This document shows positions 26,701-32,574 of a stretch of DNA of 64,000 bases, piece after piece. How positions within the stretch are numbered: position 1 is the stretch's first letter; the number at the start of each line of letters is the position of its first letter. The notes under the pieces were generated by a model. It did not search any database and was not told the DNA's origin. It saw nothing but the letters and a program-made list of their open reading frames with translations. The position numbers and the translations under genes were made by a program. Origin of the DNA: Picochlorum sp. SENEW3 (Eukaryota); contig CP120459.1 in the NCBI GenBank assembly GCA_034226945.1, positions 372,001-436,000 of the forward strand, in the 5' to 3' direction.

Positions 26701-27241
26701 AGAAATCATAATAAGTCAGCGTGCATTCTTTACAATGCCTCGTCGCGCACCACCATTCACATACCTCTCCTGCCGCGGCATCAGAGTTCAACTTTGCATG
26801 CATTTGCTCAACCTGCTCCTTCCTCTGCTGCTCCAACAGCTTCAAACGAGCCTTCTCTTTCCGAGCCATCTCCTTTGCCTGCTTATTCTCCAGAACCTGC
26901 ACAATATTGAGTAGACTCGTCAGAAACCACCCAGCCCACGTTGGTATTGTGGACACACTGCCAGTAACGCATTCAAAAACCAGCCCATCTCGTGCGTCCT
27001 ATTCCATAACAACAATTAAGTAATCATTCAAATTCAATCATTTGATAAAACGTACGTCATCAGGAGCTTCTTCCTCCGTGTTGTATTCTTCGCCATCGTC
27101 AGGCTCTTCTTCTTCCTCTACGTCACTCGCTGACGCATCTGCTATCGCAAAATCATCATCTGGTGCACCATCCTTGTAGGAAACCTCGTTTTCCTCCCCA
27201 GTATCCCCTGCGGCCTTCACGTCCTTACCCTCTTCAGCCAT
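23732..27241 (-). CDS. ISWI: ISWI chromatin-remodelling ATPase, multi-exon
   Basis: [20 protein letters not shown] and [11 protein letters not shown] motifs with C-terminal HAND-SANT-SLIDE. Upstream exons are joined by GT-AG introns. Confidence 0.95.
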
Positions 27242-27435
27242 CGCGAGTGCTTTCTGATCTTTCTTGTACTGGTGTGAACACTTGAATATCTATCTGTTCA
27301 GCAGTCAATATTTCAAATAAATTTGTATACTGTATTCGATTGGATGTATCAACGCCGTAGTACGCCAATGAGACTCGGAGCGTTTGAACGTTGGGATTTT
27401 CTAATTGCTAATTTGGGAATTTTTACATTTGACTA

Positions 27436-27459
27436 CCGTAAAAATTTTAAATTTCGTTT
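27436..27459 (+). repeat. Left terminal inverted repeat
   Basis: Pairs with 29978-30001 at 21/24 positions; preceded by TA. Confidence 0.85.
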
Positions 27460-27567
27460 AATTAAGGAATGTAACATCTAGTCCATTTGACTCTGGTCAA
27501 TCCGAATCTTCTAGAACCTTGGATTGGTATGAAGTCGAGCCGCCATCGCCAACCGTGTCATTTCAAA

Positions 27568-29880
27568 ATGAAAAAAAAGAGAAAGGTGTCCGCCACACCA
27601 TCGAAAAAGGTGAAGAAAAAGAAGTTTACTCGATTGGATGTGGCTATAAAGAAGGATAAAGACCGTTTTTTCAATAAGACAGTCGTCAAGTGCACTTTGC
27701 AGCCTTTTTGTAAGTTCAAAGTGGTTCAACGCGAAATTGAAGAATGTGTATTCTACCTGAGTAGACTACAGATTCATGCGCATCATGTCATGCATCTATT
27801 GTTATTGAGGAACGGTGGGGCATTTAGGGACGATAAAGATGAATCTCTCTACGAACTCTACAACAAAATCTACAGACACCTTGCTAATCATTTGCAACAA
27901 AAGAAGGAGAGAAAGGATGTTGATACCAACTTGCGCGACTTGTGCAAGGAATATTGTGAGGAGACTGGGTTAAAAACAGATTGGCCTCAGGGTTGTGTCT
28001 CTGGTTGGAGGGGCAAAACAATGGAGCAGATGGCCCAGCAGTCGTCTGTTATGCATACCACGCATTTGGAAACCAATCTTAATGTATATGCATTACGGTA
28101 TCTGAGATATTTGCTATTTCGAGACGACACGGACTTTGACCAAATCAAAAATTTGTCAAAGAAGAAGTTTGGACAAGTATTTTCTGCAATCACACAGGCA
28201 TTCTGGGAGAGGACGAAAGTCAGTGATATTGTTGAACGTAGACCATCATTGACAGAATTTGCGTCTGATGTGTCAGTATGGGATGAAGCACAGAGAGCCT
28301 TGGATATCATTTGCTCGTTGGTGCCAAAGACGACAACTCTTTCTGAGAAATCCAGAATTTGCTTCTTCATTTTGGGTCACTTGGAGCCATTCGTGGAATC
28401 ACTGCAACAGAGGTTCAGAAACGGAGAGTTTGAAGGGAAGAAGAGTATACTTGGAAGACAGAAATGGACATTTTGTCTGTGTCCACAGATGGCCTGGAAA
28501 CCAAAGCATATCCATATCTCCAGCACAGCAGTGAAGACTATGGTTGAGCAACTCGCAAAGAAATATCCATATATCAGAAAGATAGTAGATGACTGTCCAG
28601 CACTGGATGACTATACAAATAAGTATTATTATTGGAAATCGATATTCAACATGAAGCGAGTATTGAAAAAAAAGCACATGAAGGACCAAAAGAAACTCAG
28701 ATTCGGATGCTCTATATGCACTGATGGCGTCTCTGTTTCTGCTGTTATAGACACTGTGAAGTCGGATCTGGAATGCACGATAATCCATCTGCAGGATGAT
28801 ATGAATTACGTCAAAGCAAAGTTGTGGGCCACCTACTGTGGGATGTTTGCAACCAACATTATTGCAAAAAAGATCAGATATGACCCTTTGCGTATTCTCC
28901 TTGGTGACATTTCCACCATACATTATGTTCTACTGAAGCCATTGTTGCATACATTAAAGTCACAAAAGGACGTTCTACAGAAACGAAAGGCTAAAAACAA
29001 AGACAAGACAGTCATCACAGAAAGGATCAAAAGGTTGGCTGGCATACGCAAAGATGACCATGGTATATATCACACAGATTGTATCATTGTCGGTTTGGAC
29101 CCAGGTAAAAAGTCAGCGGCCACGTGGGTTTTTCATGATTCGGAAAAGCAAAAGATCCATGCAAAGTGGAATGCAGAAAATGGTCGTCATACAGAGGTGG
29201 AAGACAGATATAAAAGTGATTCTCTGGGGTCAGGAGAATGGATCTTCTTATCTAGTCAGAAACAGTATACAGCCAAAATGAAGAAAAGGATGTCTGAATA
29301 CTGTCCTGCATGGGTGTCTGTGCCAACATGCAAGACAGTAGATCTTGAGAAAATTTTTGAGAGTTACAGATTCCAAGTTTCTATGTGGCCCCAACTGCAA
29401 CAAGCCTTCTTCGATGACAAAAAATGGTATCAGAAACAGAAGATGAGGAAATTTTGCAAGGAAAAGTCGGCCATGGAGGATGTGGTCGCTCGAATCTGTG
29501 GAACAAGAAACAAAGAGGCACAGAAGAGAGTCATCGTGGCGTATGGTGATGGTGATAATAACGGCACAATGAGGGGCACTGCTCCTATCATGAGCACAAA
29601 ACTGTTCAACAAGGTATCGGAATGTGCCACAGTTGTGTTGGTTAATGAGTTCAATACGTCCAAAATCTGTTCTTGCTGTCATGAGGCAATGGAACAGTAC
29701 AACAAACAATTCAGGATGAAACGTTGTCACAACAATGAATGCATTCGAAATGTTTGGGACCGTGATGTCAATGCCAGTATCAATATCAAAGACTTGTTTT
29801 TGGAAAAGTGTTACAATGGATCTCGAATCAAGGCTTTCAAGAGGACGAGGAAAAGGCAAAGGACATCAACACGGCAATGA
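27568..29880 (+). CDS. Fanzor1-type (TnpB-like) putative RNA-guided endonuclease, about 770 aa
   Basis: ORF 27487..29880 with ATG at 27529 or 27568. Motifs: FGCSICTDGVSVS, RuvC-I IVGLDPG, VIVAYGDG, RuvC-II VNEFNTSKIC, zinc finger CSCC...CHNNEC, RuvC-III WDRDVNASINI. Confidence 0.92.
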   Translation: MKKKRKVSATPSKKVKKKKFTRLDVAIKKDKDRFFNKTVVKCTLQPFCKFKVVQREIEECVFYLSRLQIHAHHVMHLLLLRNGGAFRDDKDESLYELYNKIYRHLANHLQQKKERKDVDTNLRDLCKEYCEETGLKTDWPQGCVSGWRGKTMEQMAQQSSVMHTTHLETNLNVYALRYLRYLLFRDDTDFDQIKNLSKKKFGQVFSAITQAFWERTKVSDIVERRPSLTEFASDVSVWDEAQRALDIICSLVPKTTTLSEKSRICFFILGHLEPFVESLQQRFRNGEFEGKKSILGRQKWTFCLCPQMAWKPKHIHISSTAVKTMVEQLAKKYPYIRKIVDDCPALDDYTNKYYYWKSIFNMKRVLKKKHMKDQKKLRFGCSICTDGVSVSAVIDTVKSDLECTIIHLQDDMNYVKAKLWATYCGMFATNIIAKKIRYDPLRILLGDISTIHYVLLKPLLHTLKSQKDVLQKRKAKNKDKTVITERIKRLAGIRKDDHGIYHTDCIIVGLDPGKKSAATWVFHDSEKQKIHAKWNAENGRHTEVEDRYKSDSLGSGEWIFLSSQKQYTAKMKKRMSEYCPAWVSVPTCKTVDLEKIFESYRFQVSMWPQLQQAFFDDKKWYQKQKMRKFCKEKSAMEDVVARICGTRNKEAQKRVIVAYGDGDNNGTMRGTAPIMSTKLFNKVSECATVVLVNEFNTSKICSCCHEAMEQYNKQFRMKRCHNNECIRNVWDRDVNASINIKDLFLEKCYNGSRIKAFKRTRKRQRTSTRQ

Positions 29881-30020
29881 ATTCGGCATGTAAGTCGGCT
29901 GCTTTTTGCAGACGCTATGCTTCAAGATACAGCAGAGAGAACGATGGAACTTCCAAGTTTGGAACATTCCGTCCGACAAACGAAATTAAAAAATTTTACT
30001 GTATCATGCTCCAAGCAGTG
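29880..30020 (+). ncRNA. Candidate Fanzor omegaRNA (scaffold up to the right TIR, guide from the flank)
   Basis: Nested pairings: GTCGG 29894-98/CCGAC 29973-77; CTGCT 29899-903/AGCAG 29931-35; hairpin GATGGAA-C-TTCCA-AGTT-TGGAA-CA-TTCCGTC 29943-73. The position matches known Fanzor/TnpB omegaRNAs. Boundaries are inferred. Confidence 0.6.
29978..30001 (-). repeat. Right terminal inverted repeat
   Basis: AAACGAAATTAAAAAATTTTACTG followed by TA. Confidence 0.85.
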
Positions 30021-32031
30021 TTTTGACATCCTCTGGGGGGTGGATGGAGGAAATCAGAGCACTTCTAGATGCGGCATGGTATGCATTTGTATATACATCA
30101 ACGATGCTCGAGGCAATTTTGTCTGCAATAGCGTTCCTGATGCCTTGCTCAATGATGGCTTGGTCTGCTCTGACAGTGCTGCATGACGGGTCTTCCAGCT
30201 TTGACCACAGTGCAATGGCACCTTGGGCAGCCACGTCCTCCGACAGAGGCTGGTTATCTAAAGCTTCATTGCTCTCTGTTTGGCCATCGACTGTAATATG
30301 CGCCTTTTCAGCGTCATTGGTGGAGCCCTGTGCGCGAAGCAATGTTCCCTCTAAAATCCTTGAAACGTCTGTTGCCACCATGCGGTCCATGGTCTCTTCA
30401 ATCTTGTCTTGCAATTTCTTAACAAGAGCGGACACGGATTCGTACGATTCAATCTGACGCCGGATATGACACAAGCAGTTGATAATGTACACATACTGCT
30501 TGTTTGGATTCATTGCAGATGTTGTGTCATCCAACCTGACTGAGGATTTTGGATTGAGCGCATCTGCTCCCGCAATCACTGAATTAATGATTGGATCCAT
30601 AATGTTGAATAACAAGGACTCGAATTCATCATCTTCTGTCACGGAGGCGTCGCCAGTATCGTCTTTATGTAGCAGTGAACTTTCATAAAACTTGATGATG
30701 CTGACGCCAATGGAGAGTCTGTCACTGTACAAGTCAGGCATGGAGAGGTCCTGAGGAGGGAGTGGGGGCTGCCTCACCAATCTATCTCCTCGCTGTTTCA
30801 TCTGATCTCGTAATAATTTCTCAGCGTTTGACTGGCAGGATCGCAGAGTATGTAAAAGCTTTCCATCTTCGCCCATGACTGGTTGTATGGTTCTCACATA
30901 AAATCCAAACAATGTGGTGAGCTGGAAATTCAACACGGGAGATGGAGCAGCCATGAGAATTTGATCCAGGCGTAATTTCAATGGCCTGCAAATACTATCA
31001 AAGATTGTATCCATGATTTCTTGCAGAGACAAGAGTTTTGATGAATCATCATCATCATCCGTCTTGTTCTTGTTGTCCTGTGCTTGCATGTATGCCTGTA
31101 AACTAGATGTTCGGGAGACAAGACCTCGAGAATCATAGCACCCTTGGAACAAATTGCCTACAAGCTCCATCTCACTCGCAATGGCTGCGTGCACCCACGC
31201 AAGCATATCATTGGCGTATCGCCAAGGATCCGCTGCATGCATTTCAATAGGTCGCGGGCCCTGAGACAGAGCCTGAATGAATTTTTCAAACACGGCTGTT
31301 CTGCGAGCAATGGCAATCTCCTCTGCGCAGTACGAATATAGAGGAGGGCGAGATCGCAACAATTTCATCGCCTTTGGGATCATATCGGCTATTTCTGGGG
31401 CATCAGGAGACTCGATTGATTGACACTCGGCCTGAATCCAGGAGCACACGTGTTTGAATGCTTCATCTTGCAACGCAGATAACTCATCCAGCAACGCCAA
31501 ACCAGCCTTATGGTGATACGATAATCCTAATGATCGACAATTACTATGGACAATCTGAACTTTCTTCAGCGCATCGATAAAGGCTTCATTGATCACCCCT
31601 TCCTGCAGTGTCTGTACATATTCTCGTGGAAGCTGATACTTTTCCTGAAATACATCCAACCACTCCTTTTTGGACTCTGTCAACGATATAGAATGTTCTA
31701 ATCTTTCAATATCGTTCAGTACGTTGGAGCATTGCAGCTCTCCCTCGGACAGAACAGAAGACATGGTGTCACACAAGGACCCCAGCCTTGCCAAGTCATT
31801 GCACACTGTATCAATCGATCCCATGATTGTTTCAGCATCTCCAACAAACCGCGTACTACTCTCAATCAGTCCTTTCTCGATTATGGAGCGAATGTTTCTG
31901 CGATTGTATGCGCTGTTATCGCTGTAAATAGTGGAAAGTGCTGAGAGATCTTTGGACACTTCTGGACTATCCGTCTTTTGCCCCAAAACTTTGCTCAACT
32001 TGCGCTGCAAACCAGGCGCTACTGAAGACAT
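30004..32031 (-). CDS. COG6: Conserved oligomeric Golgi complex subunit 6
   Basis: APGLQRKLSKVL, NRRNIRSIIE and GPRPIEMHAADPWRYANDMLAWVH motifs. Confidence 0.92.
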   Translation of the reverse strand: MSSVAPGLQRKLSKVLGQKTDSPEVSKDLSALSTIYSDNSAYNRRNIRSIIEKGLIESSTRFVGDAETIMGSIDTVCNDLARLGSLCDTMSSVLSEGELQCSNVLNDIERLEHSISLTESKKEWLDVFQEKYQLPREYVQTLQEGVINEAFIDALKKVQIVHSNCRSLGLSYHHKAGLALLDELSALQDEAFKHVCSWIQAECQSIESPDAPEIADMIPKAMKLLRSRPPLYSYCAEEIAIARRTAVFEKFIQALSQGPRPIEMHAADPWRYANDMLAWVHAAIASEMELVGNLFQGCYDSRGLVSRTSSLQAYMQAQDNKNKTDDDDDSSKLLSLQEIMDTIFDSICRPLKLRLDQILMAAPSPVLNFQLTTLFGFYVRTIQPVMGEDGKLLHTLRSCQSNAEKLLRDQMKQRGDRLVRQPPLPPQDLSMPDLYSDRLSIGVSIIKFYESSLLHKDDTGDASVTEDDEFESLLFNIMDPIINSVIAGADALNPKSSVRLDDTTSAMNPNKQYVYIINCLCHIRRQIESYESVSALVKKLQDKIEETMDRMVATDVSRILEGTLLRAQGSTNDAEKAHITVDGQTESNEALDNQPLSEDVAAQGAIALWSKLEDPSCSTVRADQAIIEQGIRNAIADKIASSIVDVYTNAYHAASRSALISSIHPPEDVKTLLGA

Positions 32032-32574
32032 TTTTCTATGTGTTATATCCAATATGCTTGTTCTGGGTATCTATCGAGTGTAAACCTAAAACCAGAGGTA
32101 CGACAAGTAGCCTTTCATCGTCCCCTTGCTAGTACAACGTCACATGTATGAATGGCTTCAATAGCCATTAACTATCTTCAATCTACAATTTTATATGAGT
32201 TTCAGGCAAGATCAGTTCAATGTATCCGGGAAATTCCAAGATCCATCCGTGTGGCACTCGATCTCTGTGGTCAATTTCGAGTCCGGACAGGAAGGGTCTT
32301 TGACCGTTCCTATGAAACGAAAGTTCACCGCGTTGTTTCTCGGACCTTGTTGTCTCTGACAATTGTATACTCGGTCACATGGTCTGCTCATATCAAATAT
32401 TGCACTATATTAAATTGATTGCTGGTGTCGGATGGATTGGAAGCCCTGCATTATGGAGGGCATTGATGTGTAACTGCCCCGAGTCTACCGTTGCGTTGAC
32501 TGTTTGGTATTTCTGCGTGTATCACGGATACGGCGTTACATCCTTTGGAAAAATATACCTTGTATCTCGTAGTG

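Follow-up and report, generated by a model that had tools for sequence, protein, structure and literature searches.

A probable guide-RNA scaffold gene at the right end of a Fanzor1-encoding Tc1/mariner-type element in Picochlorum sp. SENEW3

The DNA considered here is a 64-kb stretch of Picochlorum sp. SENEW3 (contig CP120459.1, positions 372,001 to 436,000 of the forward strand), termed the window below, with its first letter as position 1. It contains a 2.57-kb element at 27434-30003, bounded by 26-nucleotide (nt) terminal inverted repeats (TIRs) that are 88% complementary, with one open reading frame (ORF) that codes for a predicted Fanzor1 nuclease. For the interval between the stop codon of this gene and the right end of the element, an initial annotation made from the letters had suggested a structured omegaRNA scaffold, folded as a multi-stem junction. 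We propose that 29877-30003 is the gene for the guide-RNA (omegaRNA or reRNA) scaffold of the Fanzor1 nuclease, carried by a transposase-less Tc1/mariner-type element with a TA duplication, and assign this reading a probability of roughly 0.68.

The Fanzor ORF is intact and ends in a TGA at 29878-29880. An alignment of its 770-residue product with 24 homologues (36-99% identity) shows invariant D511-P512-G513 (DPG), E694 (in NEFxTS) and D733 (in DRDxNA), invariant zinc-finger cysteines C701/C704/C720/C725 (CxxC...CxxxxC), and a TDG motif in which D386-G387 is invariant and T385 nearly so. The signatures described for Fanzor and Fanzor1 proteins are a RuvC-I DPG, an alternative RuvC-II glutamate, a RuvC-III aspartate and a C-terminal zinc finger, with TDG in the WED domain as a Fanzor1 hallmark (PMC10711439); the location of the WED domain is here taken from the literature and not from a structure. 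The Cas12f1-like TNB domain (E 4e-8) is the sole Pfam match of the 770-residue protein. The family profile matches the Fanzor1 of Guillardia theta (GtFz1; 9cer/9ces/9cet) with E 7.7e-5, over residues 636-742 only (~110 residues), and the single protein sequence finds no match among PDB sequences with phmmer. By its signatures, its TNB domain and the GtFz1 profile match, the predicted product is a Fanzor1 nuclease, apparently of a subfamily without a sequence-detectable solved relative other than this weak match. A scan of metagenome contigs with the family profile yielded 55 loci, of which L001-L011 are close relatives (35-52% protein identity) and L021 and L028 further copies of the L004 family; L005 was left out, its contig ending before the stop. 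A protein-profile scan of a viral-contig collection gave four loci, all distant (26-43% over short parts), which were set aside.

The ends of the element are sharply defined. The two TIRs are the only TIR matches in the window (expected 0), and the termini read TA-CCGT...ACTG-TA, which fits a TA target-site duplication (TSD) of the kind described for Mariner-borne and SPu-1 Fanzor1 elements (Bao & Jurka 2013, PMC3627910). Past the terminal TA the sequence differs among the insertions in the window, in X1 and X2 (two public sequencing runs) and in L010 and L011, the latter two being identical up to ...ACTGTA and diverging directly after it. Contigs from X1 and X2 break at 27434 and at 30003/30004 with other flanks beyond; in X1 the depth over the element is 117-130 as against 56-57 over the flanks (~2x), and in X2, which is labelled as another organism than X1, the element recurs with four differences in 1888 nt at other insertion sites, the window flanks being uncovered there. 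All evidence from these runs, as from the RNA-library runs X18-X20 used below, consists of assembled contigs, in which a hole in the cover proves nothing. The element is intact and recently mobile. It contains no transposase gene, and it is read as a non-autonomous Tc1/mariner-type element, the superfamily being assigned from the TIRs and the TA duplication rather than from a transposase. The window TIR shares 92-96% identity over 25 nt with those of L010/L011 (L010 2325-2349 and 4735-4759), whose Fanzor proteins are only 39% identical to that of the window; TIRs kept far better than their cargo are expected if one transposase family mobilises both elements. A separate observation in X2 concerns two segments, 29337-29433 and 29919-30015, of ~4-fold extra depth, together with loose ends at 29429 and 29968; they may be truncated or guide-only derivatives.

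Seven lineages have a readable 3' end, and their protein divergence is saturated. The distance from stop to end varies widely, with 123 nt in the window, 174 in L001, 176 in L002, 159 in L006/L007, 148 in L010/L011, 72-78 in L003/L004 and 61 in L008/L009. Across these differences four sequence blocks recur: a leader (A)TGAATTCGG at or just past the stop; CGG-N3-4-GTAA-N-YCG, in five lineages; a linker with an adjoining box, GCTTCAAGA-TACAG (with variants ...AATA-TACGG); and the terminus ...ACTGTA. The leader core, spelled GAAUUCGG in the window, comes after the stop as GAATTCGG, or with one letter changed, in the window, L001, L002, L003/L004, L006/L007 and L010. The linker precedes the box in all long and short forms, as GCTTCAAGA, GCCAAAAGA, GCTAAAAGA, ACTCAAATA or ATTCAATA. 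The window module has eight 8-mers in common with L001 and nine with L002 (shuffle means 0.26 and 0.19, maximum 4). These conserved blocks run from 29877 to 30003 on the gene strand and span the TIR, which, as far as sequence can tell, is the position published for omegaRNAs and reRNAs; the placement of a scaffold between the Fanzor stop and the right end, as first annotated, is in this respect borne out, with both the blocks and the stem described next conserved and the design agreeing with that of published Fanzor1 RNAs. A motif search with GAATTCGGNNNGTAANNCG in the viral-contig collection gave 64 loci, none with the box downstream, and these were judged to be chance matches.

The box TACAG and the terminal CTGTA are complementary and close a 3' domain that encloses variable hairpins (P3 in the window) and the TIR. 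Since MAFFT had split the termini over two sets of columns, the pairs of this terminal stem were tabulated sequence by sequence: all five form in each of ten related sequences. Pair 4 is G-U in L007 and L010 and A-U elsewhere; pair 5 is G-C, or A-U in L004, L021 and L028, a two-sided (compensatory) change, because L004-type elements are 98% identical to L003, which has G-C. A sixth pair, U-A in L007 and L010 and G-C in L003 and L008, is absent from the window, L001, L002 and the L004 group, and the stem lengthens to 11 pairs in L007 and to ~22 in L010, spanning the whole TIR in both. The unconstrained minimum free energy (MFE) structure contains the stem in six of eight sequences (L001, L007, L010, L003, L004, L008), and in the window a fold with it lies 0.5 kcal/mol above the MFE. 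The 3' domain of the window (29928-30003) folds better than its shuffles (z -2.30, 6/200), as do those of L001 (-3.21), L007 (-3.31), L010 (-4.34) and L008 (-1.96), with L002 at +0.05. In their own right, elements 98% identical down to ...AAGATACA end in different hairpins, TACAGG-AATT-CCTGTA in L003 (3206-3225) and TACAA-N10-11-TTGTA in L004 (4139-4162), L021 (216-239) and L028 (205-229), these L004-type copies all being followed by TA; from the sequences, this last module has been exchanged or remodelled with its pairing kept.

Two more distant Fanzor families (L025/L055 and L017/L027/L029/L041/L043; 24-50% identity over parts) are likewise present in several copies, whose sequences part immediately past a conserved terminus, ...CAACTGTA and ...TTTGTAATAA respectively (L025 3488-3573, L055 687-772; ~95 nt past the stop in the other family). 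Both show the same design, in which an internal arm can pair with the right end and some of the pairs are G-U.

The fold first proposed for the interval fares less well than its location. It combined an outer pairing into the TIR, P1, P2 and the P3 hairpin; the letters and coordinates of these complementarities are correct, except that C29973 is claimed by both P1 and P3. The MFE structure of 29880-30001 has -26.9 kcal/mol, with z -1.44 and an equally good fold in 22 of 200 shuffles, and contains P3 and a small hairpin around TGTAA, without P1 and the outer pairing. On 29872-30003 the multi-stem junction reaches -18.7 kcal/mol, or -20.4 once P2 takes its alternative form, where the MFE is -27.9. 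The outer pairing (ensemble probability 0.03) and P1 (0.01-0.13) are both absent from the relatives; no helix linking the 5' part to the interior of the 3' part scores higher than P1, whose score is attained by 84% of shuffles. The long-range form of P2 is likewise improbable (0.06, absent from relatives), whereas its alternative CTGC-TTTTT-GCAG survives as the second hairpin, at a position where L001, L002, L007 and L010 have a hairpin of other sequence and length. P3 is real, present in both MFE and centroid (0.81-1.0), but peculiar to this lineage: at its position the relatives form different hairpins or lack one, L003 having just a four-base loop inside the stem and L001 sharing only ATGGAACTT with it. 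P1 and the long P2 are further disfavoured because they conflict with the conserved pairing of box and terminus, P1 crossing that stem and the long P2 using two box bases. That the junction is nonetheless the functional scaffold fold, for which the existence of all four complementarities, the great stability of P3 and a comparable CGTCG/CGACG match seen by eye in L002 might speak, is very improbable, as in none of six lineages of relatives does an inter-domain helix rise above shuffles (p 0.10-0.97). A pseudoknot or other inter-domain pairing (leader with inner TIR, or P1-like), prompted by the likeness of GAATTCG to the inner TIR, was tried and rejected, with no lineage beating shuffles and the L004 group lacking a partner. 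An Rfam search of 27000-30500 with E up to 1 gave no family match. Thus, judged by conservation, the core of the module is very probably the leader, the linker and the box-terminus stem rather than the P1/P2 junction.

The differences between the internal arm, of which the box is the counterpart in the window, and the complement of the right end suggest that this core acts in RNA. In six anchored alignments the transitions are G-U-compatible on the plus strand in 12 cases and of the A-C type in one (share expected by opportunity 0.55; binomial p 0.005; an earlier version with two unanchored alignments gave 12 to 2). Such a one-sided bias points to selection on a plus-strand transcript, as a double-stranded DNA feature should not show it. 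The window adds nothing to this count because its arm consists of the five-base box only.

Several observations weigh against the scaffold reading, some of them concerning the fold. The terminal stem of the window has just 5 bp, two of them from the TA duplication, with an ensemble probability of 0.11-0.14; it is missing from the MFE and competes with a shifted register GCAG:CUGU, and in L002 the fold with the stem lies 3.4 kcal/mol above the MFE. The hairpins of the minus strand fold about equally well (z -1.85). X1 and X2 copies have no variant in 29880-30003, and hence there is no within-family covariation for the window element. In the 5' half, which folds no better than shuffles (z +0.30), the candidate first hairpin (3-4 bp with a YGUAA loop) is paired in 15 of 16 cells in four lineages with one two-sided change, a result equalled by 425 of 500 shuffles with only four informative rows; its 4 bp compare with 7 bp reported for solved Fz1 RNAs, and in L007 and L010 it has a competitor in a CG-AAUU-CG hairpin. 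What the 5' part conserves is thus its sequence, with the fold a candidate only.

The remaining objections concern the origin of the complementarity and the RNA data. The internal arm resembles the left TIR (32/38 in L006, 21/26 in L010, 12/13 in L008), and thus the complementarity may have begun as a duplicated TIR (fold-back); a DNA-level origin of the match between box and terminus is real. RNA support consists of assembled contigs only: those of the oligo-dT RNA library X18 lie at 27434-27755, 29353-29503, 29575-29778, 29787-30004 and 30148-30200, and X18, X19 and X20 hold parts (shares 0.25, 0.10 and 0.06). The X18 contigs show the presence of the sequence in the library and give no strand, start or level; that at 29787-30004 stops at the element end, a stop not used here as a transcript end, and could be DNA carry-over or the antisense 3' untranslated region (UTR) of the neighbouring COG6 gene.

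On these grounds the interval might be DNA-level only, an ordinary 3' UTR with its TGTAA signal plus a subterminal transposase-binding sequence, the TACAG box and its extensions in relatives being a degenerate internal duplicate of the left TIR, as in a fold-back or a nested miniature element, with no RNA function. Box and right end would then match because they descend from one TIR. The L006 arm indeed shows a closer match with the left TIR than with the complement of its right counterpart (22/29), the TIRs are strongly kept between elements with divergent proteins, TGTAA is enriched after host ORFs (see below), hairpins fold on both strands, and in Spizellomyces punctatus ghost loci are described that consist of two inverted repeats without a gene (PMC10432273). 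We nevertheless consider a purely DNA-level role unlikely: besides the G-U bias, the leader and the linker upstream of the box are conserved though not TIR-like, the window box keeps just the five bases that pair with the terminus while its other likeness to the left TIR is lost (10/15, in a non-anchored alignment), and there is no further module or TIR copy in the window. Moreover, a DNA origin and a use in RNA are not mutually exclusive.

The TGTAA at 29889-29893, directly upstream of the P1 strand GTCGG, had been taken for a poly(A) signal. Green algae use UGUAA as a poly(A) signal. In the window 12 of the 25 ORFs of at least 250 residues (the Fanzor gene included) are followed by TGTAA within 120 nt, with 13 occurrences in all, and the density of TGTAA is 3.47 per kb in the first 150 nt after stops as against 0.77 per kb window-wide (4.5-fold), AATAAA being rare at 0.53 per kb; judging from this distribution, the host probably uses UGUAA as its signal. 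In Chlamydomonas TGTAA is described as the principal poly(A) signal, preceding the poly(A) site by 14 nt on average (PMC3439250), and this precedent, together with the enrichment, makes the earlier assignment plausible. If the signal is used, the Fanzor mRNA would end near 29907, within the second hairpin, and the guide RNA would have to come from read-through or from a downstream cleavage product.

This raises the alternative of a shorter guide RNA, in which the leader and the UGUAA hairpin belong to the cleavage and polyadenylation region of the mRNA and the RNA starts at ~29907, comprising the linker, the terminal-stem domain and the guide. The enrichment and the Chlamydomonas spacing would suit it, as would the lack of structure beyond chance in the 5' half of the window, the short L003/L004 forms, which lack the GTAA hairpin and the second hairpin and yet exist in at least four near-identical copies, and the PpFz1 RNA, reported to be 75 nt in total (PMC11423790). 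It is, however, a somewhat weaker candidate than even the DNA-level account. The relatives keep GTAA and often not TGTAA (CGTAA in L002 and L006/L007, GGTAA in L008, none in L010), the leader GAATTCGG is retained even in the short forms, solved Fz1 RNAs are described as needing a first stem-loop upstream of the linker (PMC11423790), and, as a weak point, the X18 contig crosses 29787-30004 without a break near 29907.

A further and rather speculative possibility, which we rate lower again, is that the YGUAA loop is a host cleavage and polyadenylation signal that couples guide-RNA production to mRNA 3' processing, such that one RNA polymerase II (Pol II) transcript would yield both protein and guide. 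Cleavage ~14 nt downstream of YGUAA would end the Fanzor mRNA and release a fragment with the linker, the terminal stem and flank, which the nuclease would capture as its guide RNA, shielding it from degradation. The module, in which a left-TIR-like arm would fold back onto the right TIR, could moreover move by itself as a guide-only element.

The longer scaffold starting at the leader remains our preferred reading. The features on which it draws, and those first proposed, are collected in Table 1. The predicted plus-strand RNA would have its 5' end at or near the conserved leader (A)UGAAUUCGG, followed by one or two small hairpins (the first with the UGUAA loop) and the conserved linker. UACAG would then pair with CUG and the duplicated UA, and the resulting terminal stem would enclose the dispensable, lineage-specific P3 hairpin and the AU-rich TIR. 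The guide would begin at 30004 and extend over ~15 nt of flank. The nuclease, bound to this RNA, would recognise and cut the empty target site, in which a motif with TA at its end precedes the right flank.

Table 1. Positions of the features of the element and of its candidate guide-RNA module in the window
Feature	Position	Strand	Remarks
Left TIR	27434-27459	+	TACCGTAAAAATTTTAAATTTCGTTT; 26 nt, 88% complementary to 29978-30003; first two bases TA read as target-site duplication
Fanzor1 gene	27568-29880	+	770 residues from ATG 27568; in-frame ATG 27529 would give 783 residues + stop; lysine-rich N-terminus resembling a nuclear localization signal
Leader block	29877-29887	+	ATGAATTCGGC; overlaps stop codon; 8-mers in common with L002, L003, L006 and L010 above shuffles
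Candidate first hairpin	29884-29897	+	CGGC/GUCG, loop AUGUAA holding TGTAA 29889-29893; in MFE, pair probability 0.54
Second hairpin (alternative P2)	29899-29911	+	CUGC 29899-29902, UUUUU, GCAG 29908-29911; pair probability 0.49-0.51
Linker	29919-29927	+	GCUUCAAGA; conserved, predicted single-stranded; precedes box
Box UACAG	29928-29932	+	5' strand of predicted terminal stem; pairs with 29999-30003
P3	29943-29973	+	12-bp interrupted hairpin (7+5 bp, one G-U); variable distal part of terminal-stem domain
Right TIR	29978-30003	+	last five bases CUGUA 29999-30003 = CTG + TA duplication 30002-30003; 3' strand of predicted terminal stem
Predicted guide segment	30004-30020	+	~15-17 nt of flank, a length based on published Fanzor1 RNAs; antisense to last COG6 codons
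P1 (initial annotation)	29894-29898 / 29973-29977	+	GTCGG/CCGAC
P2, long-range (initial annotation)	29899-29903 / 29931-29935	+	CTGCT/AGCAG
Outer pairing (initial annotation)	29882-29885 / 29981-29984	+	TTCG/CGAA, into TIR

The host of the window is an intron-poor eukaryote, with neighbouring ORFs for COG6, an ISWI-type SNF2 ATPase, a RabGAP-TBC protein, a GRAM/VASt protein and glutamate synthase. The COG6 ORF (30004-32052, minus strand) abuts the element with its stop at 30006-30004. Removal of the element and one TA reconstructs an empty site that reads TGA-TA-GTCAAATGTAA on the minus strand, with the COG6 stop followed 8 nt on by TGTAA (27428-27424); therefore the element went in downstream of the COG6 stop codon and ahead of the probable poly(A) signal of that gene. 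The first minus-strand TGTAA past the COG6 stop is now inside the element, at 29815-29811, and on this arrangement of signals COG6 transcripts must now pass antisense across the whole predicted guide-RNA module. A TTTT run at 30020-30023, 17-20 nt beyond the right end and within the COG6 coding sequence, is probably a coincidence rather than a terminator, because the insertion sites at loose ends in X1 and X2 have no such run at that distance. Upstream of the Fanzor gene, the motif TCTAGAA (27510-27516), in the 5' untranslated or promoter region, recurs in L001, L002 (TTCTAGAA) and L006, and TCTGGTCAAT (27492-27501) is common to the window and L003/L004; either may be a promoter element or a transposase site. 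A blastn-short search of the window and the fetched loci found no ghost copies, and megablast of the element against a phage collection gave no match.

The locus contributes a Fanzor1 element that is well delimited and apparently active, and whose subfamily has the weak GtFz1 match as its sole solved relative detectable by sequence. The comparison across lineages gives a map of the constrained parts of the 3' module, namely the leader, the linker and the box that pairs with TA and the end of the TIR, and this map defines a predicted scaffold (29877-30003), a predicted guide start (30004) and, in P3, a hairpin that can probably be trimmed. The pairing of the TIR end and the duplicated TA with a left-TIR-like arm, through changes that preserve G-U pairs, supports the published view that Fanzor1 RNAs absorb sequence imposed by the transposase. 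The TGTAA inside the module raises the question of how eukaryotic guide RNAs arise from Pol II transcripts.

Among known systems, several Fanzors have been found to have RNAs that derive from the 3' non-coding region and abut the right end (Jiang et al. 2023, PMC10530073). That of Chlamydomonas CrFNuc-1, the fRNA, is a non-coding RNA in the 3' UTR of the Fanzor mRNA, as predicted here, and its conserved upstream region is described as absent from the RNA trace, which suggests processing and poses the same question as the TGTAA of the window; CrFNuc-1 belongs to another element type and is likened here by its description only (PMC10530073). The nearest solved protein by profile, GtFz1 (Xu et al. 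2024, PMC11423790), has a likeness confined to the RuvC/TNB part. Its 150-nt RNA resembles the candidate in its long scaffold, with several stem-loops after stem-loop 1 (SL1), some of them reported not to touch the protein (PMC11423790), and differs in overlapping 17 codons of the gene (PMC10432273), whereas the conserved block of the window starts at the stop codon. The solved Fz1 RNAs are described as having a common 7-bp SL1 bound by RuvC/TNB, being variable thereafter, and totalling 75-150 nt (PMC11423790).

In Spodoptera frugiperda ascovirus 1a and related TIR elements (Yoon et al. 2023, PMC10711439), the Fanzor1 reRNA likewise comes from a non-autonomous TIR element encoding only Fanzor1. 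As described there, Fanzor1 reRNAs have a three-stem shape without a pseudoknot, include the TIR and TSD in the scaffold with the terminal bases in a double-stranded stem, and run ~15 nt beyond the TSD (PMC10711439). The RNA predicted for the window would likewise have three stems and no pseudoknot, and its duplicated UA would pair with the UA of UACAG. The ascovirus element differs in transposon family and host, and its RNA was seen by in vivo small-RNA sequencing, whereas that of the window is a prediction (PMC10711439).

The closest parallel in organization is SPu-1 of Spizellomyces punctatus (Saito et al. 2023, PMC10432273; PMC3627910), which, like the window element, is roughly 2.1-2.6 kb long and carries one Fanzor1 ORF between ~30-nt inverted repeats with a putative TA duplication. 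The SpuFz1 omegaRNA comes from the interval that separates the stop from the right repeat and includes that repeat, with the flank as its guide; its 75-nt scaffold, which precedes a 14-15-nt guide, is reported to comprise SL1, a 6-nt linker and a stem 2 with its base abutting the guide, the distal part (C40-G70) being dispensable (PMC10432273). The module of the window would match this order of stem-loop, short linker and last stem with its base at the guide and a dispensable distal part. It is unlike SpuFz1 in having no detectable protein sequence likeness (phmmer against PDB finds nothing and the profile matches GtFz1 only), in its interval of 123 nt as against 75, in an extra hairpin and in a first hairpin of 4 bp as against 7 (PMC10432273, PMC11423790); unlike in S. 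punctatus, no ghost copies were found in the window, and the guide RNA is here a prediction from sequence. Taken point by point, the module fits the published Fanzor1 design except for its short first hairpin, and by this comparison it is best regarded as a further example of an already known design of Fanzor1 guide RNA rather than as a new kind.

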